Shown in pieces: positions 23,580 to 57,588 of a DNA stretch of 64,000 bases. This stretch comes from Candidatus Woesearchaeota archaeon (GTDB lineage Archaea > Nanobdellota > Nanobdellia > Pacearchaeales > GW2011-AR1), in assembly GCA_964372205.1 (NCBI GenBank), contig CAYJQB010000001.1, positions 551,699 to 615,698 on the forward strand, written 5' to 3'. Each line of letters opens with the position of its first letter. Position 1 is the first letter of the stretch. Under the pieces are notes generated by a model. The model did no database searches. It saw only the letters and a program-made list of their open reading frames with translations, and was not told the origin of the DNA. The position numbers were made by a program, and so were the translations under genes.

Positions 23580-24380
23580 TCAAATCCAGCCCCTCTTCCT
23601 TATGCCCTGATTATATATCTGGAAAATAAAACTTTTTTCAGCAAGACTTCTATGTTTTCTCAAATAAGCAACCCTTCTTCCTTTATCGTTCTCAATCTCG
23701 ATAAGGCATTTACTCCAATATTTCAATATGTCTCCTCCGACCATTCTTTTTTCATTATCCCAGCTGTAAATTTGATTTGTAACAAGAACAGGAATATTCT
23801 GTTTTCTGGCAATCTCTGCAAGAAGTCTCATCTGCCTAGTAAGTTCAGCATTCACTTTTTGTATATGCTGAATGTCTTTCTCCATTTTTCCATTTTCAAC
23901 ATCTTCAAGTTTCTTTTCCCGAGCATCAGCAAACTCAAGTCTATAAAGCATAGTCATCCCATCTACAATAATCAAGCTTATTTTATTGTTCAAATATTTC
24001 AATAGCTGGTCAAAAGCATCTTTCTGTTCCTTAAAACTTGTAGGTTTCAATAATAATATGTTCTCAAGCACTTTATCCAACTCCCCGTTCTCATTGTCAG
24101 CACCAATCAACTGCTTCACTCTTTCAGAAGAAAAGCCTCCTTCAGTATCTATAAATATCACTTTATTTCCTTTTTTAGCTTGTGAAACCGCTGCGCACAA
24201 ACAAAAGTTTGTTTTCCCACTTCCAGCCCCCCCATAAAAAGTTGTTATTATGTCAGAATCATACCCTCCATGAAGCCATCTGTTCAAGTCATAACTTCCG
24301 GCAGATAGCTTCCTGTTCCCTGGACTCCTAGAACCCGGAGAGGTTGTAGAGTCATAACTTCCGGCAGATAGCTTTACCAT
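23580..24380 (-). CDS. radB: DNA repair and recombination protein RadB, with a 21-aa duplication/insertion at the N-terminus
   Basis: Walker A GGAGSGKT, FIDTEGGFSSER, Walker B IIVDG, GGDILKYWSK and KHR motif; KLSAGSYD occurs twice. Confidence 0.93.
   Translation of the reverse strand: MVKLSAGSYDSTTSPGSRSPGNRKLSAGSYDLNRWLHGGYDSDIITTFYGGAGSGKTNFCLCAAVSQAKKGNKVIFIDTEGGFSSERVKQLIGADNENGELDKVLENILLLKPTSFKEQKDAFDQLLKYLNNKISLIIVDGMTMLYRLEFADAREKKLEDVENGKMEKDIQHIQKVNAELTRQMRLLAEIARKQNIPVLVTNQIYSWDNEKRMVGGDILKYWSKCLIEIENDKGRRVAYLRKHRSLAEKSFIFQIYNQGIRKRGWI
24287..24374 (+). repeat. perfect 25-bp direct repeats flanking a 38-bp insert (period 63, in-frame)
   Basis: agtcataacttccggcagatagctt at 24287-24311 and 24350-24374. 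Confidence 0.97.
24312..24349 (+). mobile_element. putative mini-element, copy C (insert in radB)
   Basis: Core ctggactcctagaacccggagaggttgta (24320-24348) matches 57513-57542 at 26 of 30 aligned positions; mobility is inferred. Confidence 0.6.
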
Positions 24381-24454
24381 GAATATCCGTCAATTATCAG
24401 ATATATAAAAATTAGTATAACGAATAAATATAAAATAAAAAAATAAAATTGTTT

Positions 24455-24640
24455 TTACCTTCTCTTTTTCTTCTTAACAGGCGCAGAGCTTACTGAAGCT
24501 CTTCTATCGCTCTTGGCTGTTTCAAAGACAAGAAGCAAAACAGCAGCAACCAGTATTATCCAGTAAGAAAAATCGGTCTGCCATAAAGAAAACCCTATAA
24601 TTATGGCCAACAGAGCAATTTTCCAATTTTTGCTTATCAT
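24455..24640 (-). CDS. small two-TM protein with basic tail
   Basis: 61 aa; GGAGGTGA Shine-Dalgarno upstream; resembles its neighbour. Confidence 0.75.
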   Translation of the reverse strand: MISKNWKIALLAIIIGFSLWQTDFSYWIILVAAVLLLVFETAKSDRRASVSSAPVKKKKRR

Positions 24641-24643
24641 TTT

Positions 24644-24651
24644 TCACCTCC
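24644..24651 (-). promoter_or_regulatory. Shine-Dalgarno GGAGGTGA
   Basis: tcacctcc on the + strand, 3 nt from the ATG at 24640. Confidence 0.8.
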
Positions 24652-24687
24652 TATAAATCTAAATAAAAATAATTTAAAAATGTAATG

Positions 24688-24903
24688 TTATCTCCTTCTC
24701 TTCTTAGAGCTCTTTTTTGGACTTGCGATTGGCGCAGTAGCTGATCTTTTCACGCTACAGCAGTTTGTGCACATCCAGGCATGTAACAGCAACAAAATCG
24801 CAGCTACCACAATTATCCATTGCGAATAAGTCCATGTCCATAGTGCAAACACTATAATGACAATAGCCAATATAGTTTCGGTCCATTTACAATTGCACTG
24901 CAT
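24688..24903 (-). CDS. small two-TM protein with Cys cluster and basic tail
   Basis: 71 aa; SD upstream; N-terminal CxC and CxxCC after the second TM. Confidence 0.75.
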   Translation of the reverse strand: MQCNCKWTETILAIVIIVFALWTWTYSQWIIVVAAILLLLHAWMCTNCCSVKRSATAPIASPKKSSKKRRR

Positions 24904-24906
24904 TCT

Positions 24907-24914
24907 TCACCTCC
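24907..24914 (-). promoter_or_regulatory. Shine-Dalgarno GGAGGTGA
   Basis: tcacctcc on the + strand, 3 nt from the ATG at 24903. Confidence 0.8.
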
Positions 24915-24953
24915 ATAATAACATTGAAGAAAAATGCATTAATAAACATAACG

Positions 24954-25208
24954 TTATTTCTTACTAATTGATAACTTACTAGAATCTTTCTCTATAGCAG
25001 AGATTGCTTCACCGATAGCTTTTTTTACAGTCTTGCCTGAAGTCTGAACCTTCAAAAGTGCAGGTTTAGAAATGTGCTCTCTTCTCCATGCAACAAAATC
25101 AACTCCCTCAGTCTTGCTCAGATAAACTCTCAACAATTCAGCTATTGTGACATTATCTATCTTGAGTTCAATATCATCCTTTTCAGATTTGATAACTTCG
25201 ATTTCCAT
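24954..25208 (-). CDS. rpoL: DNA-directed RNA polymerase subunit L (Rpo11)
   Basis: TIAELLRVYL...GVDFVAWRREH...KPALLKVQT pattern; 84 aa. Confidence 0.8.
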   Translation of the reverse strand: MEIEVIKSEKDDIELKIDNVTIAELLRVYLSKTEGVDFVAWRREHISKPALLKVQTSGKTVKKAIGEAISAIEKDSSKLSISKK

Positions 25209-25289
25209 AGTAATCATCAAGAAAATTGCTTTTTAAACCTTTCCAACAATCACATAAATATTATTAAGTAATCCCACAAAAAAAAGTCC

Positions 25290-25568
25290 ATGTTACTCCT
25301 AAAAATACTGGGCTTAATAGACCTAATAGCTGCCTCAACATTCCTGATGTTGATATTTGGAATAAACCCTCTTTTGCCCTTAGTCTTGTTCTCAGCAGGT
25401 CTTCTTCTCTTGAAAGGGCTGTTCATCATCACTGGAGACGTACTTAGTCTTATTGATTTAACCGGTTCTGTAGTCCTTTTAATAACTCTTCTGATTACAA
25501 TACCTTCAATAATTTCCTGGGCACTTGCTTTCTTATTGCTAGCAAAAGGAGTAGTAAGCTTTGTTTAA
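25290..25568 (+). CDS. small membrane protein
   Basis: Hydrophobic 92 aa with an internal GxxDL repeat. Confidence 0.65.
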   Translation: MLLLKILGLIDLIAASTFLMLIFGINPLLPLVLFSAGLLLLKGLFIITGDVLSLIDLTGSVVLLITLLITIPSIISWALAFLLLAKGVVSFV

Positions 25569-26131
25569 TCGATTATTTCTATATCTCCGCCAACCCAAGC
25601 ATCGGCGTCTGCTTTCTCAATCTTCTTCTTAGACTCATTTCTTCTCTCTTCCCTAAATTTCTCAGCCTGATTCTCCTCAAGCATCTTCCTGGCAGAGTTA
25701 AAGGCATCTTTATCCTTCCTCAAAGAAATTCCTAAAGCTTCCTCAAGCTTTGTTATAAGAACTATACTATTCGAATCAAGCTCTCCTAATTCTAATCTCT
25801 TTATGTTATCTTCGGAGTCTCCAATTGTCTTAGCAAGTTGCATTCTTGAAATTCCCTTTTCTCTTCTCATCCTAGAAAGCTTCCAGTGAAAGTTATCTTC
25901 CAAAGAGTTAGCAATTCTTTGCCTAAGACTATCTTTTGCAGCCTTGTCCTTTGGAGTTAAATCTAAGGTTAAATGATTCTTCTTCGCAGGCATAGGCACA
26001 TTCGCCTGTGCGTATATCTCCTGTTTAGATGGAGTGTTCAGAATAAAAAGTTCCTCTTCTTCTGCTTGGGATTTCGGAACACGCATAATCTGCCCATCCT
26101 TTATCACCTCTACAACAATTTCATCATACAT
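25565..26131 (-). CDS. XRE/MBF1-like helix-turn-helix protein
   Basis: RMRREKGISRMQLAKTIG...IKRLELG...KLEEALGISL. Confidence 0.75.
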   Translation of the reverse strand: MYDEIVVEVIKDGQIMRVPKSQAEEEELFILNTPSKQEIYAQANVPMPAKKNHLTLDLTPKDKAAKDSLRQRIANSLEDNFHWKLSRMRREKGISRMQLAKTIGDSEDNIKRLELGELDSNSIVLITKLEEALGISLRKDKDAFNSARKMLEENQAEKFREERRNESKKKIEKADADAWVGGDIEIID

Positions 26132-26183
26132 GAAAAATCAAGAAAACTCCTCTTTAAATTGTTTATTGCTCTAAAAAATATAG

Positions 26184-26855
26184 TTAATTTAGGTATTCTT
26201 TAAGGTCTTCCGTACTCCTCAAATTGTAGATAATTACATCTTCATTTATTATTACTGCTGGAAATTCTTCTATTTTATACTCCTGTACTAATACTTCTAG
26301 AGAGACTAGCCCTTGATCGGCTGCTATCGGAATAAGAACAAATCTTGCTCCATCCTCGTCCTTAAGATCCCTTAAAATTCTAGACCAGATTATCTGCTCA
26401 CTTATTTTAGCAACATCTTCAGTTTCATATTCATACAAATATACCACGCTGTTTATATTGCCGCATCTTTTTCTTAGCTCGATTATATTTATCCAATAGA
26501 TTGTCCTAAGCAAGTCATACTTCTTATGTAATATTTTGGATGCGCCAGTTATCTTATTTGAGTTATCATAATTTTCCAAAAGCAACGCTTCCTCGTATAT
26601 TTTATCAGCAAAAGTTATACTCACATCTCGAAGTTCATCACAAGAGATTTCTTCTGAATCAATCAAGCTTGACAAAGCATAACTATCATATAAAGATATC
26701 TCTGAATCATAAAAGTCTATAGCTATAGAATCTGTTCTCATCTGTTCTAAATATACTCCCAAGACAAGGCCTACTGCAAAAACTAAGACTGCTACGAAAA
26801 AAGCCTGCCAAAATGCGTGTTTTTTATTGCTAAACATCTTCTGTATCATCTCCAA
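26184..26855 (-). CDS. membrane-anchored hypothetical protein, possible C-terminal thioredoxin-like fold
   Basis: N-terminal TM; YKIEEFPAVIIN resembles a thioredoxin cis-Pro loop but there is no CxxC. Confidence 0.65.
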   Translation of the reverse strand: MEMIQKMFSNKKHAFWQAFFVAVLVFAVGLVLGVYLEQMRTDSIAIDFYDSEISLYDSYALSSLIDSEEISCDELRDVSITFADKIYEEALLLENYDNSNKITGASKILHKKYDLLRTIYWINIIELRKRCGNINSVVYLYEYETEDVAKISEQIIWSRILRDLKDEDGARFVLIPIAADQGLVSLEVLVQEYKIEEFPAVIINEDVIIYNLRSTEDLKEYLN

Positions 26856-28075
26856 GCATATTTCTTTCTTAAAAGTTTGTATAAAGAAGACATTAAGATT
26901 ATTGGATAGATGGCTGTATATATCAACGAGTAGAAAAGAACCGCGAATAATCCTTCTTTCTGCCCCGTTTCTTTATTCACTATCTTCAGTGCAAAAAATA
27001 AGAAAACAAGCCCTGCCAGAAATAGAACAATTCCAAGGAAATTCAATATAGAGGGATTAAGATTAACATCTTGTAGATATAAAAGAGCAGTATTTGTGTC
27101 TATACTAAAGATAGTTGTTAGGTAATATTTCCATATTCTGAGGAATATCCTCCATCCGAGAAACCCAATCCCGAAAACTCCCAAAAGCAAAGAGATTGCA
27201 AAAAAAGGTAATATGAAGAATCCTAACATCCCTCTTCTAAACCACGCATGCTTGTATTTGAAGATAGTCTGCATACCTCCGATATTCCACCTTACCCTCT
27301 GAACATACCATTTTTTCAAGGTATCTGGTGCAACTGTTGTGACTTTTGAAACAAAAGACATCCTTATTTTATATCTCTCGTAGACAAGATGCCATGTAGC
27401 TTCTATATCTTCTGTCATGTTGTTAGGATCGAAACCGCCGATATGTTCTAGCGCTTTTTTATCATACAGAGCCAAAGGCCCTGGAGTCACATATATAGCA
27501 TCTAAAAAGCCCAAAAGTTTTCTTGTAAATGCAATCACCTTATACTCGACCGCTTGCAATCTCCTTAGAAAATTATCTGCCCCTCGAACTTGAACTCTTG
27601 TGGTTACAGCCCCAACTTTTTTTTCATCAAAAAACCCCACCATGCTTGATAGAGCATGCTTTTCAGGATAAGAATCAGCGTCAACAACTGCTATTAATTC
27701 CCCTTTTGCAATTTTAATTGCTTTGTTAAGAGCATTCGCTTTACCCTGTTTTTCTGCCAGTAGATATTTCACAAGAGGATATCTTCTCTCCAACTCTTTT
27801 GCTATTTCAGGAGTCCTATCTTTGCTGTTATTATCTAAAATTATTATTTCTACGATGTTATCATAGTCTGAAGCAAGCACACTCTCGACAGTTCCTTTAA
27901 TGCTTTTCTCTTCATTATAAGCAGGAATCAAGACAGAAACAGAATAGTGCTTTGTTATCTTTGGCACTGAAAACACTTCTTTTCTGTTTTGGATAAACGT
28001 CAAAACAAAAAGACTGAGAAAATAAATCGAAATGAACATGTATAATAGATACACAAAAGTTACAAATTCAACCAT
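26846..28075 (-). CDS. GT2 family membrane glycosyltransferase
   Basis: IPAYNEE, GKANALN, DAD, TED and QRVRW (QxxRW) motifs of processive GT2 enzymes. Confidence 0.92.
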   Translation of the reverse strand: MVEFVTFVYLLYMFISIYFLSLFVLTFIQNRKEVFSVPKITKHYSVSVLIPAYNEEKSIKGTVESVLASDYDNIVEIIILDNNSKDRTPEIAKELERRYPLVKYLLAEKQGKANALNKAIKIAKGELIAVVDADSYPEKHALSSMVGFFDEKKVGAVTTRVQVRGADNFLRRLQAVEYKVIAFTRKLLGFLDAIYVTPGPLALYDKKALEHIGGFDPNNMTEDIEATWHLVYERYKIRMSFVSKVTTVAPDTLKKWYVQRVRWNIGGMQTIFKYKHAWFRRGMLGFFILPFFAISLLLGVFGIGFLGWRIFLRIWKYYLTTIFSIDTNTALLYLQDVNLNPSILNFLGIVLFLAGLVFLFFALKIVNKETGQKEGLFAVLFYSLIYTAIYPIILMSSLYKLLRKKYAWR

Positions 28076-28624
28076 TTATTCACTTCCCTTCTCCTCTCCA
28101 AAAGATTTGCCATTTTTCTGGACAGAAAAATAGTCATAGAATTCGTCGCTAAGAGTCAATTCATGAGTATGTCCCACTTTCCTTTTATGCACCAACCCCA
28201 TTGAAACAAAATTCTTTATATGGTCATAAGATTTGTTCCCTCTTATTTTCACTAGAACGCTCTGCTTCATGGGTTGTTTGTATGCTATAATTGCTAAGGT
28301 TTCCTGCTCTGCTTTAGTAAATTCGCTAGACCCAGTAGCAAGTTTATTAACCATTCCGAAATAATCTGGAGAAACATCCATCTTCCACAAGTCATCTTTT
28401 CTCACTATCTCTATGGCAGAATCTTTATATCTGTCAGTTAAATCATCTAAGAGTTTTCTAAGCAGAATCGGATTAATATCTGTAAGTCCCACTAACTCCT
28501 TCAGATTCAAAAATTTTCCAGATATGAACAATGCAGCCTCAATCTTTCTAAGATTTTCCCTTTCCCTGGAATCATCAATCTCTTCTATACTCTCACTAGA
28601 AAACTCTCCTTCTTCCATGTTCAA
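28076..28624 (-). CDS. scpB: SMC-Scp complex subunit ScpB
   Basis: IEAALFISG, ETLAIIAYKQP and IRG motifs. Confidence 0.9.
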   Translation of the reverse strand: MNMEEGEFSSESIEEIDDSRERENLRKIEAALFISGKFLNLKELVGLTDINPILLRKLLDDLTDRYKDSAIEIVRKDDLWKMDVSPDYFGMVNKLATGSSEFTKAEQETLAIIAYKQPMKQSVLVKIRGNKSYDHIKNFVSMGLVHKRKVGHTHELTLSDEFYDYFSVQKNGKSFGEEKGSE

Positions 28625-28656
28625 CCCTATGAAATGATATTTTTAAATTATCTGAA

Positions 28657-29229
28657 CTATCCAAAAGCGATTAAAATCCCTTCTATAATTGCAGCTATAA
28701 CTAATAATGGGAGTATTACAGTGACAATCACTTTCAAAGATTTGTCTATTCTTCTAAATAATTCTTTTTTCCTTTTCTTAGAAGGCACAAAAACAAAAGT
28801 CCCAAGTTTTACACCGAGGCCTATTGCAATAAATATTGCCGGAAGCTCAAAAATTCCATGAGGGACAAGGCTGAGAAGGATAGAGAATCCTGCCACTGAA
28901 ACCGCTTTTGCAGAAACATAACCTATAAGTGCTCCATTCATCAAAGCATTAAAGACTGGAAATATTCCTAAAAATACCCCAAAGACTATTGCAAGAAGAG
29001 CGCTCATAAAATTATTCCTAAATATAAATATTATAAGTTGTAATGTATCAAGTCCTTCTGTCTGTTTAAGCACATCCCTTAAAATTGGATCAAAAAAACC
29101 AAAAGAGGGTGCAAAGATATAACCTATGATAGCGCTTGCTACAAAAAGCATTACCGCCAACAGCAAGAAATATTTTGACTCTTTAAGATATTCCCAAGAC
29201 TCTCTCAAAATATTATTCTTTCTTTTCAT
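28657..29229 (-). CDS. stage II sporulation protein M-like membrane protein
   Basis: IFRNN, NGALIG and PHGIFELPA; ATG overlaps the rhomboid TGA (ATGA). Confidence 0.8.
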   Translation of the reverse strand: MKRKNNILRESWEYLKESKYFLLLAVMLFVASAIIGYIFAPSFGFFDPILRDVLKQTEGLDTLQLIIFIFRNNFMSALLAIVFGVFLGIFPVFNALMNGALIGYVSAKAVSVAGFSILLSLVPHGIFELPAIFIAIGLGVKLGTFVFVPSKKRKKELFRRIDKSLKVIVTVILPLLVIAAIIEGILIAFG

Positions 29230-29948: not shown

Positions 29949-29950
29949 GA

Positions 29951-30736: not shown

Positions 30737-30839
30737 TTTTGCAAAAAGGCAAATAAAAACCTTTCGCCGGAAGAAAATCTGGGCAGATGTCTGTTTTTGT
30801 TACCATTATATAATTTATATAAACCTATAAAAATCAATT

Positions 30840-31424: not shown

Positions 31425-31425
31425 T

Positions 31426-31743: not shown

Positions 31744-31780
31744 ACAAATAATTTTTAAAACTCCCTTCTTTCATAATTCT

Positions 31781-49010: not shown

Positions 49011-49011
49011 A

Positions 49012-49086
49012 CGGCCCCGACAGGATTTGAACCTGCGACCCTCAGATTAGAAGTCTGATGCTCTATCCAGGCTGAGCTACGGGGCC
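49012..49086 (-). tRNA. tRNA-Arg(TCT)
   Basis: Anticodon arm TCAGA-CT TCT AA-TCTGA; GGCCCCG acceptor stem. Confidence 0.95.
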
Positions 49087-49122
49087 ACCCATTAATCAAA
49101 AAAAATTGTTATTTAAAACTTC

Positions 49123-52100
49123 TTATCTGTCTCTTAAATTAAGTTTTATGAATTTCCTACCCCTATGATGATTTCTTGTTGTTTTCTTATGATGTTTCAT
49201 AACAAATCGTGTTACAAAAATCAAGATGATAATTCCTGCTAAAACTATAGCTGCATAGGTAAGTGTTTTCTGGTTGGCATCAGATATTGCAAGGCCTGTA
49301 AGTCCCGAAGATGGAAGAATTACTGTATTCACACTATTTAGAACATCCAAGTTGGATTCAAGGTCTATAAACAATCTGAATTCTCCAAAAGTGTCTTGAG
49401 GAAGTTCTAAGTCAAACTCATACTCTCCCTTAGAGCTTGCAATCGCAATAATGCTCCTTTCTCCCTCTGTAATTATCTCTCCATCTCGATTCTCAAGCCT
49501 GTACTTCAGAGCAATATTCTGATCAGCCCCACTTAATTCCTCCAAAGAGTATGAAACAAGCAGTTTATTCCCGTCTCTTTCTGTTCCGAGAAAATCAAAA
49601 TCAAAACTGCTAGGAAGCACGGCGACTTGAAGAGGTATGCTTGCACTAGTCTCATCACATACGACATCAGCTCCAATATTGTAAGTTCCCGAATCAAACT
49701 CCAAAGGTATTGCCAACTCAAAGACAAATGTAGCAGACTGCCCAAGAGAAAGATCTTCAACCTGATTACTGCTTATCAAACCTGCAAATGGACCTGTTGG
49801 AACCATCTGGCAGTTATTTAGGAATACTCCTCCGGAATTTCTAACTGTGAAGCTAACGACGGCGCTCCTCCCTTTCTTGATGCTCAGCCCTGGAAGATCT
49901 GCATAGCTAAGCCTAGGTCCAGAGAATCCCCCACCTCCACCGCCTCCTCCTCCTCCACCGCTTCCACCGCTTCCAGAAGAACCAGATGCAACACTAAAGC
50001 TAGTACTGCTATCCCCTTCGTTTGATGCAGCGTCAAAAGCAGAAACATCAAGATCATAGTTCCCATCTCCCTGGACGGTTATTTGAGTGTTTTCACAAGA
50101 AGTAATTATGTTTACCTCCAAATTTTGTCCATTTGCCGAATAGGTAAGATTATATGAACAGGTAGTTACAGGACTAGAGTCATTAACTTCAAAAGTCAAA
50201 GGAACTGTAGTATCTGTATAGGTTCCATTTGGCTCACTAATAGTCACATTTGGAGGAGTATAATCTGTTGTTAGAGACCTATTTCCACTTAATACATAAT
50301 CTCCATCGCTATCCAAACATCCAACTGCCCAAATATATACTCCTTCTGTCAAGTTACCACTCTCAAAAGTATTTTCTTGTCCGGATAAAATTGTCAAATC
50401 TGTCTGGCTAAGCCCATAACTTCCATCAAAATCGTTCCACAATTCACATCTGCTAACTGAGCTATCTGAATAAGGAATATATATCAAAGTCACATTTCCA
50501 GAATTATTATAATGCTCTTGCTCTGGGTAGACTAGATGGACATTGGGTCTTCCGTTTTTAACGAAAAATATCTCGCTATCCGAGTTCTCTAAACCACCAA
50601 AGTATTCCCTGGCAAAAAGAGTTATATTGTACTCTCCATCGCTCGGAACTGAAAAAGTCATATTCTCACATCCCAAGATTGTGTTATTAGCTCCGTTATT
50701 CAGATTGTAGAAGCATTCAACTCCAATATAATAAGATAGAGAAAAGTTTAGTGGAACGGAGCTTAGATTGCCGTATGTAGAAGAATAGCTAGGATAATCT
50801 ATTTCAACAGTTGGGGCCAAACTGCTAGTGTTTACCTCAAAGTAAAATGCGACTTCTGAAGAGTTTTCAAAACCGTCAAAAGCAACAACACTCCAAGAGT
50901 ATTGCCCATCAGAAAGATTGCTCCATGAATAAGCTATATTACTTCCATTTGTTTGTCCTAAATACTCTTGCAGAAGATTTCCATTGCCATACGCCCAAAC
51001 TGTTAAATTCTCTAAGTCTTCATCAAAGACGCTGAAGTTCAAGTCAACATAGTTCAGAGTAACATTAGAACCATTTGAAGGAGAATTGTATACTACTCTT
51101 GGAGCTCTATTTCCTTGAGGAGTCACATTCACAAAATAAGTCTTAGAACTAAAACTATAATTCTCGCTTTCTAAATAAAACAAACTTATATTATATAATC
51201 CTGAAGAACTAAATAAAGTATTGTTGCTTAATTCCGAATATCCTTCATTTATCAAAGATCCGTCCAAATAAAGTTGCATGTTCGAAGATTGATCTCCTGT
51301 AAATATAGTTCCATTCAATAGAACCCAACTTCCCTCAACCACAGAAATATCGTCTTCGGAACCATTGAGAGTCAAATTAATTACACTCTGTCCCTTTTCA
51401 ACAATCAAAGTCTGTTCGTCCAATAGCGCTTGAGAGTAGTTTTGACCAGAACTTACATTCAAAATATAAAGATAATTTCCAGCAGCAAGAATAGCTGTTT
51501 CTCCACTACCAACACTTTCATTGTCTCTAAAAATTTCATATGATATATCGTCATCCCCCATGTTGCTTTCAGTATATCCAATTGTCATTTCCTCTGGATA
51601 AGTGATTACCCAAGCGTCTGAATTTGTAAGGCTTCCAATTGCTGTAGCTTTCACAATTGTATATGTAAAGAGTTCAGAAGAATTATAATTTCCAGAAGAA
51701 TCATTTGCCCACCAATAATAACTATAGTTTCCAGCAGCAATATCATTTAATTCAAAGCTAAACTCCCCGTTAGATTCCGAAACAGAATAATTTACACCTA
51801 AAAATTCAATTCCGACGTCCCCAACTTGAACATTGTCAGTGACAGTCACATTGAACTGATAGTTTGTTCCAAAAGAATAGCTTATCCCATCAGAGGGGCT
51901 CTCAATGAAATTAAAAAATTGGGGAGCGAGGTTATCAGTTGCCAAGCTGAAAAAAATTCTTTCCGTATAGTTATTATTTCCAAACGAATCATTTGCAAAC
52001 ACTAGGAATTCATAACCTCCGTCAATCAAGCTGTTCTCACTATATTCAAAATTTGTTCCATCTGTAGAACTCATGCTTGTATTTGTTATTCCATTGTCTA

Positions 52101-53883
52101 AGCTAAACATCACAGAACCTGTTTCATCCAAGCTCACATTAAACAATATTGGCAAGGAATCATAAGTTATATTCAAAGGAGAATTTATGACAACTCCTGG
52201 AGCAAAACTGTCAACATTGAAAGTTACACTATCTTCTCCCTCATTACCTATATTATCTGAAGCCCAGACAACCAAGAAGTTAGCCCCTTGTGAAGCCGTT
52301 ATACTAGAGTCCGAACATCCAGGAAGAGTAGTATTTGTTATTCCATTGTCTAAGGAATACCAACAGCTGTTCAGGTTGTCTTCTATAACACTAAAATTCA
52401 AATCAAGTGTTGCACTGTTGTAATTTCCTCCACCTTCAGGAAATTCTATAGTCACATTAGGGCTTAAAGAATCGATAAAGAAAGTGACAGAGTCATTGCC
52501 TAAATATCCTAAAGAATCATTTGCCCACACACTCCAGGTATTATCTCCCTGTTCCGAGCCTAGCCCCGTAATGTTTTCGCCACATAAAACAGTAACGTTC
52601 GTAATCCCTTGGTTTAATGAATACCAACATGAGTCAAGATTACCCTCTGCATCGCTAACAATATAATCTATAGCGGACAATTCCAGATTATAACTAATGT
52701 TCTGAGGAGAGGTTATGTTTAGAGATGGAGCCGTATTTTGACTCTCATAATGAATATCAACACTATAAGTTTCAGGACTTATGGAAGAGGTTTCTTTTGT
52801 AAAGTTCACCAAGTACTGAAAATACCTATTGGTTCCGACACTCAAGTTCTGAAAAATACTTTCGGAAACATCTGCGAAATTATCTCCAATACAGCTAGAA
52901 TCATCACAACTTCTTACACTTAAATTAAGATATCCTTTTCCTCTCAAATATCTATGAGAAATTTCATCAGAACTCAAAGATCGGTTATATAATGATACTT
53001 CATCAATTTTTCCATCAAAAAAGAAAGATCTGAAATTTCCATTCCATCCTGCTCCAACAAGAAGATTATTTGTTCCTGAACCTATAAATCCCGTTGCAGT
53101 GGTGCTATTGACAAGATACCCGTCCGAATAAACTTTAAGATTGCTCCCATCGTAAGTGAATGCCACATGATGCCATTCAGATGTTGAAAGAGAAGTCGGG
53201 CTAATAGCATTAAAATGACCTACTGAAGTATCTATATCTGCAACAATATTTCCAAAGACATTAAAATACAATGAATATTGACTGTCATATCTCTTGTCTA
53301 CCACAGAAGGGAAATTGTTTCCACCTGCATTATCATATCTATCTGCATTCACCCATGCTTCTATAGTCAATCCTTCCGTATTTTCAAAATCTGACTTATC
53401 CCCGAAATCTGCTCTATCATTACTTCCATCAAAACCTAAAGAAGTGTTAAACTTTCCATTCGCTCCATAAACAACTCCATTAAAGCTAGCTCCATGATTA
53501 GCTCTTCCAGAGCTGTCAACTAGTGTGCCTGAAGCCTCATTAAAATGAGTAAGAAGCATATTTTCTTCCATACTTATGTTCCCCCGTAAATAACCCAATT
53601 CAGTTCCTCTATTGTCAATAAGCTCGCAATAATAACAAAGACCTGTTCCAAAAGAAATATTACTCCACGTTGTATCAGAAGCACCAGAATCAAAAATTCT
53701 GCTTAAATAACCTCCAGAGTTCTGCGCAGAGTCCAACTGTACAAAATTACCTGTAGAATTATAAAATGTATTTGAATAGTTTCCCTGATCGAAATCTCCT
53801 TGATTATCATCCAAAAAATTTCCAGCCGAAACTAACCCAATAAACAAGATTACTGCAAAAAATAACCAAAATATCTTATTCAC
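49123..53883 (-). CDS. large surface glycoprotein: signal peptide, LamG domain, tandem Ig-like repeats, poly-Gly linker, C-terminal TM
   Basis: WHHVAFTYDG...IDEV LamG motifs; repeated P-x-V-x-I-x-S-P / C-W-Y-S-L modules; many NxS/T sequons. Confidence 0.85.
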   Translation of the reverse strand: MNKIFWLFFAVILFIGLVSAGNFLDDNQGDFDQGNYSNTFYNSTGNFVQLDSAQNSGGYLSRIFDSGASDTTWSNISFGTGLCYYCELIDNRGTELGYLRGNISMEENMLLTHFNEASGTLVDSSGRANHGASFNGVVYGANGKFNTSLGFDGSNDRADFGDKSDFENTEGLTIEAWVNADRYDNAGGNNFPSVVDKRYDSQYSLYFNVFGNIVADIDTSVGHFNAISPTSLSTSEWHHVAFTYDGSNLKVYSDGYLVNSTTATGFIGSGTNNLLVGAGWNGNFRSFFFDGKIDEVSLYNRSLSSDEISHRYLRGKGYLNLSVRSCDDSSCIGDNFADVSESIFQNLSVGTNRYFQYLVNFTKETSSISPETYSVDIHYESQNTAPSLNITSPQNISYNLELSAIDYIVSDAEGNLDSCWYSLNQGITNVTVLCGENITGLGSEQGDNTWSVWANDSLGYLGNDSVTFFIDSLSPNVTIEFPEGGGNYNSATLDLNFSVIEDNLNSCWYSLDNGITNTTLPGCSDSSITASQGANFLVVWASDNIGNEGEDSVTFNVDSFAPGVVINSPLNITYDSLPILFNVSLDETGSVMFSLDNGITNTSMSSTDGTNFEYSENSLIDGGYEFLVFANDSFGNNNYTERIFFSLATDNLAPQFFNFIESPSDGISYSFGTNYQFNVTVTDNVQVGDVGIEFLGVNYSVSESNGEFSFELNDIAAGNYSYYWWANDSSGNYNSSELFTYTIVKATAIGSLTNSDAWVITYPEEMTIGYTESNMGDDDISYEIFRDNESVGSGETAILAAGNYLYILNVSSGQNYSQALLDEQTLIVEKGQSVINLTLNGSEDDISVVEGSWVLLNGTIFTGDQSSNMQLYLDGSLINEGYSELSNNTLFSSSGLYNISLFYLESENYSFSSKTYFVNVTPQGNRAPRVVYNSPSNGSNVTLNYVDLNFSVFDEDLENLTVWAYGNGNLLQEYLGQTNGSNIAYSWSNLSDGQYSWSVVAFDGFENSSEVAFYFEVNTSSLAPTVEIDYPSYSSTYGNLSSVPLNFSLSYYIGVECFYNLNNGANNTILGCENMTFSVPSDGEYNITLFAREYFGGLENSDSEIFFVKNGRPNVHLVYPEQEHYNNSGNVTLIYIPYSDSSVSRCELWNDFDGSYGLSQTDLTILSGQENTFESGNLTEGVYIWAVGCLDSDGDYVLSGNRSLTTDYTPPNVTISEPNGTYTDTTVPLTFEVNDSSPVTTCSYNLTYSANGQNLEVNIITSCENTQITVQGDGNYDLDVSAFDAASNEGDSSTSFSVASGSSGSGGSGGGGGGGGGGGFSGPRLSYADLPGLSIKKGRSAVVSFTVRNSGGVFLNNCQMVPTGPFAGLISSNQVEDLSLGQSATFVFELAIPLEFDSGTYNIGADVVCDETSASIPLQVAVLPSSFDFDFLGTERDGNKLLVSYSLEELSGADQNIALKYRLENRDGEIITEGERSIIAIASSKGEYEFDLELPQDTFGEFRLFIDLESNLDVLNSVNTVILPSSGLTGLAISDANQKTLTYAAIVLAGIIILIFVTRFVMKHHKKTTRNHHRGRKFIKLNLRDR
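52079..52354 (+). repeat. 24-bp identical repeat in adjacent Ig-like modules
   Basis: gtatttgttattccattgtctaag at 52079-52102 and 52331-52354 (LDNGITNT). Confidence 0.85.
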
Positions 53884-54568
53884 TTAAGTTTCCTCCAATA
53901 TTTAGAGAATTAGATTCCGATTCTTTAGAGTCTTCTATATGAAGATTGTCAGATTGCGCCTTCAAGAGTTCATAGTCTAATTGAAAACTTTCCACATAAC
54001 TTCCCTGTCCATTAAAAATAATTTTAAATTGAAAATACCTCCCTTCCATATTAAGGTCCTCCAAATTGGCCTCAACAAACTCCCTGTCACTACAATCTTC
54101 ATAATCACAAACCATTATTTGAAACTCTATATTTCCAGGAGTTTCTTCAACGAGTGCAGATTTTGTCCTCGCGTTGGCAATTTCATCTATTTTCTTAGAA
54201 TCTTTTAATTCCTGCCAGCTAACACCTTCATCATAAGAGATTACAAACTTTCCCGTTTCATCTTTCATATAGAATAACTTTCCAGAGGACTCTCCTTGCC
54301 AATCAAATCTTTTTACAAGTGCTTGATCTCCTAAATCAATTATCCTACTAGTATACTCTCCGCTAGAAACCTCTGAAGATAAGTAAAGTTTCCCATCCGA
54401 AAATTCAATCCCCTGAAAATCTCCTTCTTCAAAATTTATTTCATCTGAATCTAAAACGCTAAGTCCAGTAACTCCTTTAAATCCGAAATAAGATATCTGT
54501 GCTAGAGCCAATAAAACCCCTAATGCCACAAGCGAGACAAATACTGCTACAACCCTCTCTTTACCCAT
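53876..54568 (-). CDS. membrane-anchored extracellular protein with an Asp-box
   Basis: N-terminal TM; SYDEGVSW Asp-box; shares SRI(I/F)D, C-x4-C and RYFQ motifs with the downstream protein. Confidence 0.75.
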   Translation of the reverse strand: MGKERVVAVFVSLVALGVLLALAQISYFGFKGVTGLSVLDSDEINFEEGDFQGIEFSDGKLYLSSEVSSGEYTSRIIDLGDQALVKRFDWQGESSGKLFYMKDETGKFVISYDEGVSWQELKDSKKIDEIANARTKSALVEETPGNIEFQIMVCDYEDCSDREFVEANLEDLNMEGRYFQFKIIFNGQGSYVESFQLDYELLKAQSDNLHIEDSKESESNSLNIGGNLSE

Positions 54569-54642
54569 TGCGTAAAAAGCCGATTGTTTTTTATAAAGAT
54601 TGCTAACAACACTTATTTAAACAATATTTACTGCTTTTTTAA

Positions 54643-55545
54643 GTGACATTGCCAATAGATATAACTATGTTGGGAACTGGAGCCTCAATCCCTACTGTTA
54701 AAAAAAATCACACGGGGATTCTAATAAGTTGTGGCTCTGAAAATGTCTTGATTGACTGTGGAGAAGGAATACAAAGACAGTTCAAGATAGGAAAGCTCAA
54801 CCCTTGTAGAATCACAAAAATCCTTTTAACACACTGGCATGGAGATCATGTTTTAGGTTTAGTTGGACTATTAGAAACTCTCCAGATGTCGGGATATAGC
54901 AAAACCCTTTCTATCTATGGTCCTAGAGGTACAAAAGAGAAAATAACCATTCTAGAAAAAGTGTACGGAAAGTTTCAGATAGACCTGAAAATACAAGAGA
55001 TATCTTCAGGGAAAATATTTGAATCTAAAGATTTTGAATTAGAATGTGCTTCTATGTCTCACAACCAACCTTGTTTAGCATATTCCTTGATAATAAAAGA
55101 CAAACTAAGGCTGAAAAAAGAAAAAATAAAAAAGTTAAAACTACCCAACACCCCTTTGCTTAGCAAATTAAAAGAAGGAAAAAATATAACTCTTAACGGT
55201 AAAAAGATAAATGCTAAAGATGTTACTTACTTGGAAAGTGGGAAAAAAGTTTCTATAGTTCTAGACACCGAAATTAATGCAAATGCACTCAAAATTGCTA
55301 AAAATTCTGACATACTAATATGTGAATCCTCATTTATGGAAGAGGATAAAGATAAAGCGAAAGAAAGAAAACATCTGACATTAAATCAAGCTGTAAGCTT
55401 AGCCAAAAAGTCAAAATCAAAAAAACTTGTCCTCACACATATTTCTGATAGATACGAGAACAAGCTTGATGAGATAAGTATAAAGGCTAAAAAGTTATTC
55501 AAGAATTCCCAAATAGCAAAGGATTTTGATAAATTTTCTATTTAG
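54643..55545 (+). CDS. rnz: ribonuclease Z
   Basis: LGTG, DCGEG, THWHGDH (HxHxDH) and LTHIS motifs; GTG start. Confidence 0.95.
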   Translation: MTLPIDITMLGTGASIPTVKKNHTGILISCGSENVLIDCGEGIQRQFKIGKLNPCRITKILLTHWHGDHVLGLVGLLETLQMSGYSKTLSIYGPRGTKEKITILEKVYGKFQIDLKIQEISSGKIFESKDFELECASMSHNQPCLAYSLIIKDKLRLKKEKIKKLKLPNTPLLSKLKEGKNITLNGKKINAKDVTYLESGKKVSIVLDTEINANALKIAKNSDILICESSFMEEDKDKAKERKHLTLNQAVSLAKKSKSKKLVLTHISDRYENKLDEISIKAKKLFKNSQIAKDFDKFSI

Positions 55546-55557
55546 CTAATCCAGCAA

Positions 55558-55800
55558 TCAAATAGATGTAGAAGATGGAGATATGAAGATTATTGTATCG
55601 CCTCTCAAGAAGGTCAATCCAAGGTTCTTCCTCGCCTCACCGTTGTGCATCTCTTTTGTATTGTCCAAAACCACATTGATATGGATATCAAATGCTTGCA
55701 AAACTCCGACAAATTGCCTATCGTTCTTTAATTGGACGATAACTTCTTTGCCTTTTGATGCATTCAATAAATCAAGAGGTCTTTCAATTCCGTTTGCCAT
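55558..55800 (-). CDS. Sm-like (Lsm) protein
   Basis: RPLDLL...G-x-L-x-AFDIHINVVL...RGD. Confidence 0.93.
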   Translation of the reverse strand: MANGIERPLDLLNASKGKEVIVQLKNDRQFVGVLQAFDIHINVVLDNTKEMHNGEARKNLGLTFLRGDTIIFISPSSTSI

Positions 55801-55916
55801 ACATCGAGATGATTTAATTGAGTTTATAAACATTCCTATAAATTACAATCCAAGTTAACAAAAAAATTCAAACTTTGATTAGCAAACTTTATAAAGCAGA
55901 ATTCTTCCTCATGAAC

Positions 55917-56279
55917 ATGAACAAAGGAAGAAACATTTCCGGAGCAAAATACCACTCAAATAGAAAGAAGAAAAAATTTGAGAAGCAACATGATGAAAGA
56001 AAAGCAGTTCTTGGAGAGAGGAGAACAAAAGTCATCAGAGGAAAAGGTGGACACAAGAAGACAGTTCTACTTAGAGCTAATACTGCAAATCTAATCATGG
56101 GAAAAAAATCAGAAAAAGTTGAGATAACCAATGTTATTGAGACTCCTCAAAATCGTTTCCTAGCTAGACAGAACAGACTAGCAAAAGGTGCTATAATAGA
56201 AACCTCGAAAGGCAAAGCAAGAATCACAAATCGCCCAAGCCAAGAAGGTAATATTAACGCAGTTCTAATCAAGGAATAA
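55917..56279 (+). CDS. rps8e: ribosomal protein eS8
   Basis: RGKGGHKK, RQNRLAKGAIIET and RPSQEG motifs. Confidence 0.93.
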   Translation: MNKGRNISGAKYHSNRKKKKFEKQHDERKAVLGERRTKVIRGKGGHKKTVLLRANTANLIMGKKSEKVEITNVIETPQNRFLARQNRLAKGAIIETSKGKARITNRPSQEGNINAVLIKE

Positions 56280-56352
56280 TTCCCAAGACTTAACCGAAAG
56301 ACTTATATACCCAATTTGTCCTAGTTTGTTTTATAAATCTTTCGGTATACAA

Positions 56353-57291
56353 ATGAGCTATGTAAAAAGATGCCCTGAATGTGACAGCATAAACTTAACA
56401 TATGATGACCAGAAAGGGGAAATCGTCTGTAATGACTGTGGACTTATCATTGAAGAAAAGATGGTTGATGCTGGACAAGAGACCGGCGGACAATTCGATA
56501 AGTCTGAGAAAAAAGGACGAGGGGGAGCACCACTTTCTATTCAAAAATTCGATAAAGGTTTAACAACTAACGTCGGAGAAATCTCAGACATATACAAGCT
56601 AGAATCTGGCCAAACTCGTAAATTCCTCAGACTGAAAAAATGGCAGGAAAGAGTTTCCACTTCTATTGAAAGAAATTTGAGGCTTGCTATGGCGGAATTA
56701 AGAAGAGAAACAAGCTTCCTTAATCTCCCATCAGTTGTAAGAGATGAAGCAGCAAGAGTTTACAATTTTGTCCTTCAAAGAGGTTTAGTCAGAGGAAGAA
56801 GCATGGAATCAGTCATAGCAGCCTGTATTTATGCAGCTTGTCGTTCATATAATATTCCAAGAACTCTAGACGAAATTGCAGCAACTTCTGATGTCCCAAG
56901 AAAAGAGATAGGCAGAACTTATAGATTTATGATAAGAAAGCTTGGCATTAAAGTAAAACCTTCCTCTCCAAAAGACTATATCTCTAGATTTGCTTCAATC
57001 TTACATCTCTCTCCTAAATCTCAAAATGAAGCCCTTAAAATTCTAAAGAAAGCAGATGTTTCAGAACTTACTTCAGGAAGAGGTCCTGCAGGAATAGCTG
57101 CCGCAGCATTGTACGTTGCTGCCCTCATAAACAATGAGAAAAAAACCCAAAGAGAAGTTGCAGACGTAGCAGGTATAACTGAAGTCACAATAAGAAACAG
57201 ATACAAAGAACTCATAGACAAGCTAGGTATAGAAGACAAACTTAAAGAAATAGAAACCAAGAATAAAGCAGAGAAAAAAGTATCTGCATAA
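56353..57291 (+). CDS. tfb: transcription initiation factor IIB
   Basis: CPEC...CNDCG zinc ribbon; two cyclin repeats; TEVTIRNRYKEL. Confidence 0.97.
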   Translation: MSYVKRCPECDSINLTYDDQKGEIVCNDCGLIIEEKMVDAGQETGGQFDKSEKKGRGGAPLSIQKFDKGLTTNVGEISDIYKLESGQTRKFLRLKKWQERVSTSIERNLRLAMAELRRETSFLNLPSVVRDEAARVYNFVLQRGLVRGRSMESVIAACIYAACRSYNIPRTLDEIAATSDVPRKEIGRTYRFMIRKLGIKVKPSSPKDYISRFASILHLSPKSQNEALKILKKADVSELTSGRGPAGIAAAALYVAALINNEKKTQREVADVAGITEVTIRNRYKELIDKLGIEDKLKEIETKNKAEKKVSA

Positions 57292-57313
57292 GAATTCTAC
57301 ATAATTCACAACA

Positions 57314-57320
57314 TTTAAAA
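57314..57320 (+). promoter_or_regulatory. probable TATA box of tRNA-Leu
   Basis: tttaaaa, matching the boxes upstream of the other four tRNAs, but 68 nt from the tRNA instead of 21-24 nt. Confidence 0.6.
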
Positions 57321-57352
57321 CACTTCCAATTTTAGTCTCTTTAACTCTAGAG

Positions 57353-57387
57353 GGTTGCTGAACTCATAGAACTCACTAGAAGTTGTA
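57353..57387 (+). repeat. mini-element, copy A (tRNA-Leu leader)
   Basis: ggttgctgaactcatagaactcactagaagttgta; 30/35 identical to copy B. Confidence 0.85.
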
Positions 57388-57388
57388 A

Positions 57389-57473
57389 GCGGGGATGCCG
57401 GAGTGGTCAAACGGGCTGGATTTAGGCTCCAGTGTGCTTAGTGCCTACCTAGGTTCGAATCCTAGTCCCCGCA
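57389..57473 (+). tRNA. tRNA-Leu(TAG)
   Basis: GCGGGGA acceptor stem, CTGGA-TT TAG GC-TCCAG anticodon arm, long variable arm, A73. Confidence 0.95.
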
Positions 57474-57474
57474 T

Positions 57475-57491
57475 GTGAATCAAAGATTCAC
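57475..57491. other. perfect 7-bp hairpin directly after tRNA-Leu
   Basis: gtgaatc-aaa-gattcac; function unknown. Confidence 0.6.
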
Positions 57492-57507
57492 TATCTGTAG
57501 GACTCGT

Positions 57508-57542
57508 GGTTGCTGGACTCATAGAACCCGCTGGAGGTTGTA
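57508..57542 (+). mobile_element. putative mini-element, copy B
   Basis: ggttgctggactcatagaacccgctggaggttgta, 1 nt before the duplicated tRNA 3' end; mobility is inferred. Confidence 0.6.
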
Positions 57543-57588
57543 TAATCCTAGTCCCCGCATTTCTAATCTAATTCAGAATCTTTTATTA

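Follow-up and report, generated by a model that had tools for sequence, protein, structure and literature searches.

A putative mobile hairpin mini-element at protein genes, tRNA ends and tRNA introns of Pacearchaeota-like DPANN archaea

Three short repeats (A, B and C) in the window, the 64,000-nucleotide stretch of archaeal DNA analysed here, are copies of a single hairpin element, here named E, that appears to be undescribed. Our preferred explanation, which we hold tentatively and with somewhat less than even confidence, includes the proposal that E is a non-autonomous mobile hairpin mini-element confined to Pacearchaeota-like DPANN archaea; our best guess for its movement is an RNA-linked, one-ended copy-in. 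An earlier note on this DNA had described a mini-element, dispersed in copies that share their right end but differ in how far they extend to the left and in the length of the flanking duplications; that description is upheld, with duplications now ranging from 11 to at least 30 bp. On recheck its coordinates for A, B, C and every flanking duplication were exact, as were its match counts (30/35 for A and B, all five differences being transitions, and 26/30 for B and C) and its account of C as a 38-bp insert in a 25-bp duplication and of B as part of a 69-bp insert in a 17-bp duplication. The features concerned are as follows.

23580..24380, minus strand: radB-like recombinase gene, from the ORF, a Walker A motif (GGAGSGKT) and orthologue comparison
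24287..24311, no strand: target duplication copy 1 at radB, 25 bp, AGTCATAACTTCCGGCAGATAGCTT, within the 5' end of the radB-like gene, with an exact repeat at 24350
24312..24349, plus strand: element copy C, a 38-bp insert, with the core GACTCC...GTTGTAG at 24323-24349
24350..24374, no strand: target duplication copy 2 at radB, 25 bp, running straight into the conserved RadB N-terminus (KLSAGSYDLNRW)
57353..57388, plus strand: element copy A, with the repeat at 57353-57387 and its last base abutting position +1 of tRNA-Leu(TAG)
57389..57473, plus strand: tRNA-Leu(TAG), intact (ARAGORN, Rfam)
57458..57474, no strand: target duplication copy 1 at the tRNA, 17 bp, AATCCTAGTCCCCGCAT, covering tRNA positions ~58-73 plus one flanking base
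57475..57543, plus strand: tail insert of 69 bp, comprising a hairpin (GTGAATC-AAA-GATTCAC), a linker and copy B
57508..57543, plus strand: element copy B, GGTTGCTGGACTCATAGAACCCGCTGGAGGTTGTAT, the right part of the 69-bp insert, with the repeat at 57508-57542
57544..57560, no strand: target duplication copy 2 at the tRNA, 17 bp, followed by the native T-rich trailer

E is 30-40 bases long, with a core of 27-38 nt that follows the pattern GACTC-N-TAGAACY-loop-RGTTGTA-N'; its right end is constant (GTTGTA plus one paired base) and its left extent varies. The earlier note had credited the element with no terminal inverted repeats, but E is built round an 8-bp imperfect inverted repeat, CTAGAACC...GGTTGTAG, which folds into a hairpin; the right arm is terminal, and the left arm is subterminal, with the conserved GACTC and more of the element lying ahead of it. 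When stem covariation was computed on 113 distinct copies, the outer pair was C-G in 67, A-T in 24, G-C in 4 and T-A in 3, the inner pair was T-A in 54 and C-G in 47, and the central G.G mismatch was present in 110. The alignment thus shows co-variation at two pairs of the stem and an almost invariant central G.G. Among L072, L086, L048 and L051 there are nested insertions in the loop and long-loop versions that resemble conserved ends around a variable interior. Copies B and C belong to GC-rich-loop subfamilies, as does copy D, a tRNA-tail copy elsewhere in the same genome. A 17-mer from the core has three exact matches in the window, all remaining matches carrying 3 mismatches, and the full pattern had 10 matches over 61 genomes versus 0 for a reversed control.

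The repeat of copy C (24320-24348) lies antisense to radB and in frame, with the translation ..STTSPGSRSPGNR.., and the 25-bp duplication encodes KLSAGSYD two times over. Together, insert and duplication form a 63-nt in-frame addition after codon 10, by which RadB probably gains 21 translated residues rich in Ser, Pro and Gly. The site is empty in two relatives, G001 and G008. The sister genome G002 holds a decayed orthologous insert, but the duplication is perfect in the window's own genome, so that a re-insertion or gene conversion is needed, which counts against our preferred explanation. Copy C is also identical across 34 nt to a copy in G002, L013.

At tRNA-Leu(TAG), the first AATCCTAGTCCCCGCAT copy is the 3' end of the tRNA itself and, as at tRNA 3' tails generally, the duplication leaves the upstream tRNA gene whole. 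Among the sister genomes, G001 has no insert here, and the insert of G002 is an independent one of 68 nt that comes with a 25-nt duplication; both the inserts and the duplication boundaries differ between G002 and the window's own genome (G000). Copy A is decayed, with 5 transitions relative to B and a broken closing pair, and is lacking in G001 and G002, while in another genus a copy of E (L108) occupies the same place, 3 nt upstream of tRNA-Leu(TAG). A and B would probably be removed together with the leader and trailer of the tRNA.

Looking further afield for more copies and for empty sites, as the earlier note had suggested, yielded both. The window's own 0.8-Mb genome contains at least four copies beyond A, B and C, all on the same strand, for a total of 7 hairpin modules at 6 loci, every one on the plus strand. 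The same core occurs in many related genera and in assemblies of Pacearchaeota, Woesearchaeota and Nanoarchaeota; of the first 80 public records matching it, at least 48 are from these groups or related archaeal assemblies, and the copy number in related genomes ranges from none detected to about 12. Inserts measure 38-130 bp, and their target duplications (11, 11, 12, 17, 17, 18, 19, 21, 23, 23, 25 and at least 30 bp) fall at unrelated sequences such as radB, gene starts and different tRNAs. In the prolyl-tRNA synthetase gene (ProRS), G002 carries three in-frame units of 39 nt, that is, three 13-residue repeats, at a place that is empty in the window's own genome. Judged from such orthologous comparisons, the empty sites at radB, ProRS and tRNA-Leu show that sister species differ by gains and losses of E. 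Assembly error as a source of these architectures is excluded, if only indirectly, by their repeated occurrence in assemblies made independently.

The surviving copies sit in harmless places: tRNA introns, leaders and 3' tails, positions just before start codons, and tolerant in-frame protein loops. Eighteen tRNA tails carry E, always sense to the tRNA, and the 16 tRNA-intron copies are all antisense to it, at the 5' splice site; four further copies end 0-4 nt upstream of tRNA position +1 and three abut tRNA 3' ends. An ORF starts 0-1 nt downstream of E in 9 of 103 copies (0.4 expected), and in the GC-loop forms a GGAGG lies 6 nt upstream of the following ATG. It is the chromosome strand, not the host gene, that the orientation of E tracks. 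The sense strand of E is the C-rich strand for 7/7 copies in the window's own genome and for 20/21 copies in nine other genomes, and orientation agrees with the local 8-kb skew in 57 of 75 cases (76%, p = 7e-6). The bias is uneven, which also speaks against our preferred explanation; some genomes show it strongly and others weakly, and matches to the core pattern in G077 are split into 9 forward and 9 reverse. Some tRNA tails are conserved across genera, and a second tRNA-end copy co-varies with its tRNA; this suggests that some copies are under selection rather than mere scars, and weighs against our preferred explanation.

The tRNA introns provide a possible origin for the element. The reverse complement of E, C|UACAACY-loop-RGUUCUA|GGAG|UC, reads like half of an archaeal bulge-helix-bulge (BHB) splicing motif, and its successive parts correspond to one base of the first bulge in a BHB splice site, the helix beside it, a 4-nt strand (GGAG) that can pair with pyrimidine-rich anticodon loops, and finally two bases of a bulge. 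In many tRNA introns, E begins at intron base 1 or 2; across genera these include introns of tRNA Lys, Thr, Ser, Phe, Arg, Glu, Leu, Cys and Gly (by ARAGORN anticodon calls, some of them unreliable), and in tRNA-Lys, tRNA-Thr and tRNA-Ser a canonical BHB has E from intron base 1. Taking a BHB intron as one that lies between exons and has two 3-nt bulges with a 4-bp helix between them, we found this structure for the relatives' intron copies L139, L013, L142 and L175 (c/c' 4/4 bp, bulge NN|C) and, by reading of the sequence, for the window genome's own tRNA-Gly(CCC), but not for copies A, B and C. The flanks of dispersed copies complete a BHB in only 1 of 110 cases, and non-intron copies are not predicted to be spliced. 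The tRNA-Gly(CCC) intron begins with 30 nt whose reverse complement is found, but for a 2-nt (TC) indel, as copy F in the intron of the genome's own tRNA-Leu(TAA); these two may be donor and copy within one genome, which we count in favour of our explanation. All intron copies in the sample have AT-rich loops, and the GC-rich-loop subfamilies of B, C and D were not seen inside its tRNA introns, so for those subfamilies an intron donor is not established, which counts against it.

How might such a module move? We suggest that a single-stranded copy of the intron module is copied into one strand of the chromosome during replication, the strand bias pointing to a replication-coupled route. The likeliest source would be the RNA of excised introns, and the fixed end of E would then be dictated by the 5' end of that RNA. 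A one-ended template switch or priming event could start the process, and strand displacement or fill-in could then generate a duplication of variable length. Copying would be done by a host polymerase or by an enzyme supplied in trans, not by a resident reverse transcriptase; as no RVT_1 domain was found in the window's own genome, the copying enzyme is hypothetical. In its fullest form the proposal is that excised BHB tRNA-intron RNA, or its hairpin module, is copied back without a canonical reverse transcriptase in a replication-coupled, strand-specific and target-duplicating process, and that this one process gives rise to tRNA introns, tail modules, 5' leaders and in-frame protein insertions alike; as a complete account we think this unlikely.

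Searches for a reverse transcriptase, Cas1 and a Y1 transposase in the window's own genome, which is 95% complete, did not reveal an enzyme that moves E. RVT_1, for which positive controls were detected, was likewise not found in 6 of the 8 other E-bearing genomes (G002, G079, G138, G087, G143 and G075). This leaves the SINE-type mechanism proposed in the earlier note, in which reverse transcription of a small RNA that ends in GUUGUA(G)-3' takes place at a nick in the target (classical TPRT), unsupported as stated, and we rate it as distinctly improbable. Its observational basis stands, namely the fixed 3' end, the variable 5' extent and the variable-length duplications, and tRNA 5' leaders that end exactly in E (A, L054 and L204) would be natural RNAs with such a 3' end after RNase P cleavage. 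A resident reverse transcriptase is not supported, however; neither a poly-A tail nor one shared with a partner element is present, orientation goes with the chromosome strand, and in a far larger class of copies it is the 5' end of the opposite strand that lies at a processing site, namely the 5' end of the intron. Should an RNA take part, the 5' end of an excised intron (5'-CUACAAC) may match the fixed end no less well than an RNA whose 3' terminus is GUUGUA-3'. Ectopic integration by Cas1 or a casposase, another suggestion of the earlier note, is not supported either: Cas1 was found in none of the 14 genomes searched, and the duplication lengths vary. E could instead be a MITE-like or REP/PATE-like remnant of a DNA transposon, with a dedicated single-strand-specific transposase, encoded on a virus or plasmid or in a stretch of the genome missing from the assembly, recognising the G.G hairpin and its 5' GACTC tail and inserting into single-stranded DNA at forks. 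The imperfect hairpin with its invariant mismatch and conserved single-stranded 5' flank, the strand bias, and the nested loop insertions and long-loop versions with conserved ends would all fit, and Y1 transposase genes occur in 5/9 E-bearing versus 0/5 E-free genomes. Nevertheless, Y1_Tnp was not found in the window's own genome, G143, G075 or G079, which has about 12 copies of E, and the Y1 genes examined had no E in the few kb around them. Target duplications are not produced by HUH/Y1 systems and are of constant length with DDE transposases, unlike the 11 to at least 30 bp seen here, and just one end of E is fixed. We consider a transposon remnant rather unlikely.

The near-identity of the core across genera raises the question of whether E is mainly a host-selected functional RNA module, not mobile but spread by ordinary duplication and recombination, that serves as a splice-site helix, as a hairpin for processing or stability of tRNA leaders and trailers, or as a portable Shine-Dalgarno leader. 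E does make the helix adjoining the 5' splice bulge, the GC-loop forms supply their GGAGG ahead of the ATG, the long tRNA tails are built alike from several hairpins that show compensatory changes, and the same tRNAs (His, Leu) are tailed in different genera. Such a module would not be expected to appear in frame in radB and ProRS, at sites empty in sister species, inside perfect duplications at unrelated positions, or in either orientation relative to genes and a single orientation relative to the chromosome; its variable copy number and the rarity of flanks that complete a BHB also argue against this idea, which we regard as improbable. For the tRNA-tail copies B and D, the earlier note's recombinase scars would be attL/attR repeats of tRNA 3' ends left around a deleted tyrosine-recombinase integrative element. 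Archaeal integrase sites at tRNA genes consist of a reconstituted tRNA plus its 3' end as a direct repeat (PMC3293823), a pattern that the repeats from T-loop to 3' end fit, and tyrosine recombinases are present. This could account for the tails but not for the copies at radB, ProRS and gene starts, where the same E with the same fixed end lies in unrelated duplications. The inserts are also very short, no recombinase gene adjoins copies A, B or C, a XerA-like gene occurs irrespective of E, and the duplication boundaries of G000 and G002 differ at the same tRNA, making this explanation very improbable.

We return to the mobile mini-element of our preferred explanation. Here one short module forms the first bases of many tRNA introns and turns up again, as fresh insertions, within protein genes and at the ends of tRNAs. 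We know of only one model for the origin and movement of archaeal tRNA introns, intron transposition in Thermoproteales, and of no mechanism for it; with a module that occurs both in introns and as fresh insertions with duplications and empty sites, the question becomes directly testable. It also follows that streamlined symbiont genomes of 0.6-0.9 Mb still host an active selfish repeat that remodels tRNA loci and the essential genes for RadB and ProRS, and whose insertion requires no resident reverse transcriptase and no transposase found in our searches.

Several known systems resemble E in part. Fujishima et al. reportedly described, in 2010, transposed BHB tRNA introns of Thermoproteales, in which related intron sequences occur in different tRNAs, much as E occupies base 1 or 2 of many tRNA introns. 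E differs in that it also occurs in leaders, tails, gene starts and coding sequence, in either gene orientation, with duplications and a strand bias; to our knowledge, non-intron sites, either-orientation copies, target duplications and strand bias have not been reported for transposed introns. Rickettsia palindromic elements are likewise short palindromic selfish repeats of reduced genomes that are tolerated and translated in frame in essential protein genes and also enter RNA genes, and the 21 residues added to RadB in the window's own genome and the three 13-residue units of ProRS in G002 are insertions of just this kind. Those elements, however, are bacterial, 100-150 bp long, unconnected with tRNA introns and lacking long target duplications of variable size, whereas E has 30-40 nt, one fixed end and a strand bias. 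With SINE/LINE TPRT, E shares one fixed and one variable end, variable duplications and a tie to small structured RNAs, but most E hosts lack a detected reverse transcriptase, E has no A-tail and no partner, and for its fixed end an RNA 5' terminus is a better match than a 3' terminus. The REP/RAYT and IS200/IS605-derived palindromes offer a similar 20-40-nt imperfect hairpin that encodes nothing, is flanked by a conserved tetranucleotide (GTAG) and has a strand-specific distribution; they lack target duplications, which E has, and the Y1 evidence above separates them further. MITEs differ from E in that its duplication length is not fixed. Eukaryotic introner elements are also small mobile elements that bear part of a splice signal and are present as introns genome-wide. 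Introners are transposons that make use of their target duplication to generate introns and rely on spliceosomal signals and DNA transposases, whereas the signal in E is that of the archaeal BHB and its non-intron copies are not predicted to be spliced. If copy-back of intron RNA proves true, archaea would have an equivalent of introners and SINEs that depends on host enzymes, and the process would serve as a live model of BHB-intron spread.

Recheck of the window found the three copies of E (the hairpin mini-element) described in the earlier note, both flanking duplications and both insert lengths to be exact. The window comes from C1, a contig of 660 kb in an assembly of 814 kb with 36% G+C, and a profile built from the three copies identified three more E loci in the same genome, each on the + strand.

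Copies of E in this genome and the tRNA gene adjoining two of them; coordinates are those of the window
57353-57387: copy A, ending 1 base short of tRNA-Leu(TAG)
57389-57473: tRNA-Leu(TAG)
57508-57542: copy B, the right portion of a 69-bp insert
Start of a radB-like gene, opposite strand: copy C, within a 38-bp insert with identical 25-bp copies on either side
Outside the window, + strand: copy D, after tRNA-His; a 12-bp repeat of the tRNA 3′ end comes next
Outside the window, + strand: copy F, inside the canonical intron of tRNA-Leu(TAA)
Outside the window, + strand: copies E1 and E2, in the tRNA-Gly(CCC) intron, antisense to this minus-strand tRNA

The insert that carries copy B has the 3′ end of tRNA-Leu(TAG) on its left and a 17-bp repeat of that end on its right. 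A and B differ at five positions, all one-way transitions with A/T in A where B has G/C, as though A had been copied earlier than B and since deaminated. At the radB-like gene, the insert with copy C and its duplication together add 63 bases that keep the frame (MVKLSAGSYD-STTSPGSRSPGNR-KLSAGSYDLNRW). No bulge-helix-bulge (BHB, the archaeal splicing motif) that would remove copy C from the radB mRNA could be drawn, and because only 1 of 110 dispersed copies, read in antisense, has BHB-completing flanks, copy C is probably translated.

Comparison of 113 distinct copies defined the core as GACTC-N-TAGAAC-Y, a loop, and R-GTTGTA-N′, the base after GTTGTA being part of the element. The N/N′ pair is C-G in 67 copies, A-T in 24, G-C in 4 and T-A in 3, and the Y/R pair is T-A in 54 and C-G in 47. 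Because these pairings are kept, together with a G opposite G at the centre in 110 of the 113, E is a hairpin of 8 bp in which the mismatch is obligatory, preceded by a 5′ tail that is unpaired and conserved. The loop is normally 4-17 nt, although some copies contain about 50-60 nt of added hairpins or another E copy (loci L072, L086, L048 and L051 in relatives). Since loop length varies, there is no fixed TATA-to-start distance, and a role as a promoter was rejected. A conserved leader peptide (MVAGLLEPAGGCR) was also rejected, being confined to one subfamily, as was a known RNA family: for the window and seven loci with long tRNA tails, Rfam matched tRNAs only. The loop and left extension distinguish subfamilies.

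Subfamilies of E
GGTTGCTG-...CGCTGGA...: A and B among members
TTCCCTG-...CGGAGA...: C and D among members
TAGTTTCTTT-...: AT-rich self-complementary loop; the form seen in tRNA introns

In the tRNA-Gly(CCC) intron, E starts exactly at the 5′ splice site (a37|CTACAACC). In the relatives’ tRNA-Lys(CUU), tRNA-Thr and tRNA-Ser the exon ends at position 37, the C of CUACAAC opens the intron, the central helix (4 bp) and the two 3-nt bulges are present, and the E hairpin is the helix adjoining the 5′ bulge. The antisense core, C|UACAACY-loop-RGUUCUA|GGAG|UC, comprises in order a bulge base, the helix, a 4-nt strand complementary to CUCU, CUCC or UUCC anticodon loops, and two bulge bases; this arrangement accounts for the conservation of GACTCC. 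In reverse complement, copy F equals nucleotides 1-30 of the tRNA-Gly(CCC) intron, bar a 2-nt (TC) indel, and the two form the sole donor–copy pair seen within this genome; for the subfamilies represented in the window, no donor intron was seen.

The full pattern is present in G002, a sister genome, and elsewhere in the family in other genera; a reversed control had no matches. A looser core search matched 60 of 121 family genomes and is uninformative in itself because this is near the reversed-pattern control level; inspection confirmed genuine copies, those whose right arm is of the GTTGTA type, in about 12 genomes, G079 and G077 having about 12. In a prokaryote-wide scan with one genome per species, the first 80 matching records listed included at least 48 Pacearchaeota, Woesearchaeota, Nanoarchaeota or related archaeal assemblies, the others being scattered bacteria, consistent with chance. 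The named public records that contain E agree with a Pacearchaeota-like (DPANN) placement of our genome. We found no description of E in the literature searched. Every genome compared is a metagenome assembly; in our own, several of the short contigs among C5, C10-C15 and C17-C21 have 44-68% G+C versus 36% for the main contig and are probably contaminants from binning, or else DNA of foreign or mobile origin. C17, one of this high-G+C group, has a tRNA-Thr.

The earlier note’s mobile element would entail further copies, which were found, and empty sites in relatives, which were found at radB, ProRS and tRNA-Leu(TAG). The radB N-terminus is uninterrupted in G001 (same genus) and G008, and in G002 it has a decayed E copy at the same place plus another directly after the ATG; a search for an empty radB allele in metagenome contigs returned 0 matches, which is uninformative either way. 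The ProRS of G002 carries three 39-nt E units in frame in its C-terminal zinc-binding region (IPY-TTSPGSMSPGNRHD...-KEKC), and our ProRS (window 4832-6295, minus strand) reads IPYNQPKSKSNC, an empty site (IPY|NQPKSKSNC, about 4900-4915). The native sequence there, on the element’s strand (GGTTGGTTATATGG), resembles the E right arm GGTTGTAT. At tRNA-Leu(TAG), G001 has neither A nor B, and G002 lacks A and has a separate 68-nt insert with a 25-nt duplication. This independent insert (L242, G002:C20) contains a palindromic T-loop hairpin (ATTCGAAC-GG-GTTCGAAT) and a variant hairpin, TACAACTT-GTAA-AAGTTGGAG; its duplication runs 12 nt past the tRNA end, and insert and tRNA copy join at a shared CCTAG. 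Unrelated sites carry clear duplications of 11, 11, 12, 17, 17, 18, 19, 21, 23, 23, 25 and at least 30 bp, and tandem arrays have units of 39, 39, 49 and 91 nt. Microhomology between the 3′ end of E and the sequence before the duplication gave a suggestive picture at T-loops, radB and ProRS that did not hold consistently at other sites, and was not retained.

Many insertions are associated with tRNA genes. Eighteen classified copies lie downstream of a tRNA in sense orientation, flanked, where examined, by a tRNA copy running from the T-loop (about positions 53-61) to the 3′ end; 16 sit, in antisense, where a canonical tRNA intron has its 5′ splice site (ARAGORN boundaries being approximate), 4 end 0-4 nt upstream of tRNA +1, and 3 adjoin a tRNA 3′ end from the opposite strand. 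Since tRNA ends make up about 0.1% of the genome and hold about 16% of E copies, the preference for them is real, beyond the survival of harmless insertions. Among the 103 remaining copies, 9 are followed within 0-1 nt by an ORF that starts with ATG and spans 60 codons or more, versus 0.4 expected. We rejected the idea that the tails are T-loop introns: two bulges 4 bp apart could not be placed at the junctions by hand, and the upstream tRNA copy is complete. A “guide” within the tail inserts, an inverted copy of the target, was likewise set aside, with modest enrichment (at least 9 bp in 8 of 21 tails versus 12% of mismatched-locus controls).

Our genome has five tail inserts, each 66-75 nt. 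A second family of them, lacking the E core and starting with an inverted T-loop copy (GGATTTGAAC), occurs at C1:247496-247641, 295280-295356 and 505406-505480, after minus-strand tRNA-Lys(CTT), tRNA-Lys(TTT) and tRNA-Ile; the flanks are 17-18-bp tRNA 3′-end copies at the two Lys genes and a diverged one, 9 bp exact, at Ile. By our own reading, the acceptor stem of tRNA-His (C1:452740-452813) has two T.T mismatches (GCGGTTG / CTTCCGC), followed by a T in place of the usual C73; in the G013 orthologue there is a single mismatch.

In relatives, long tails (about 100-130 nt) have one architecture in common, in different genera and at different tRNAs (L055, L057, L098, L118, L123, L132, L155, L165, L169, L177 and L186). 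Directly after the tRNA comes a hairpin, followed by a segment that could pair with the second copy of the tRNA end, by UGUGC-GNRA-GCAAA and by a third hairpin, which shows compensatory changes; CAAUUAUAGUUUCUU, the E hairpin and UUCUGG or UUCGGG then lead to the tRNA-end copy. This arrangement had no Rfam match and could be a structured RNA. Such multi-hairpin tails hint at selection on at least part of the E family, as would be expected if E were a host functional motif; that alternative has also to accommodate an orientation that follows the chromosome, not the host gene.

E is sense on the C-rich strand for 7 of 7 copies in our genome and 20 of 21 in 20-kb stretches of nine other genomes; in public records, a set partly overlapping the latter, 57 of 75 agree with the 8-kb local skew (p = 7e-6). 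This chromosome-tracking orientation points to a DNA-level process tied to replication or strand asymmetry, GC skew being only a proxy for replication direction. On the + strand of the 660-kb contig, 81% of the assembly, the skew is negative in every 20-kb bin with no sign change, implying either strongly asymmetric or unidirectional replication or another strand-specific process. Yet only about 62% of coding (long ORFs) is on its minus strand, with some 60-kb bins near 45-50%.

As for the machinery, the enzyme genes suggested by the earlier note fared unevenly: RVT_1 and Cas1 are absent from our genome, and a XerA-like recombinase is present but nearly universal. Classical target-primed reverse transcription, the SINE-type mechanism first proposed, would fit a fixed end with variable duplications, but RVT_1 is also absent from 6 of 8 other E-bearing genomes tested, and Cas1 from all 14 tested. 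If E copies were integrase scars, a tyrosine recombinase would be the natural mobiliser, but the XerA-like gene shows no correlation with E; recombinase-family matches occur on contigs C8 and C16, both of ordinary G+C (37%). A dedicated single-strand transposase supplied in trans would suit the strand bias, and Y1 transposase is found in 5 of 9 E-bearing and 0 of 5 E-free genomes; it is missing from our genome and G079, and no E lies in the regions surrounding the Y1 genes that were found. On these gene absences and E-free surroundings we rejected RVT_1, Cas1 and Y1 transposase as mobilisers.

We tentatively favor a model in which a single-stranded intermediate is copied in by a one-ended, strand-specific process, while displacement or fill-in creates the target duplication. 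An RNA processing site would define the fixed end; the simplest candidate is the 5′ end of excised introns. Whichever route operates, E is firmly established as a hairpin repeat that is mobile and non-autonomous and has sequence in common with the 5′ module of this clade’s tRNA introns.
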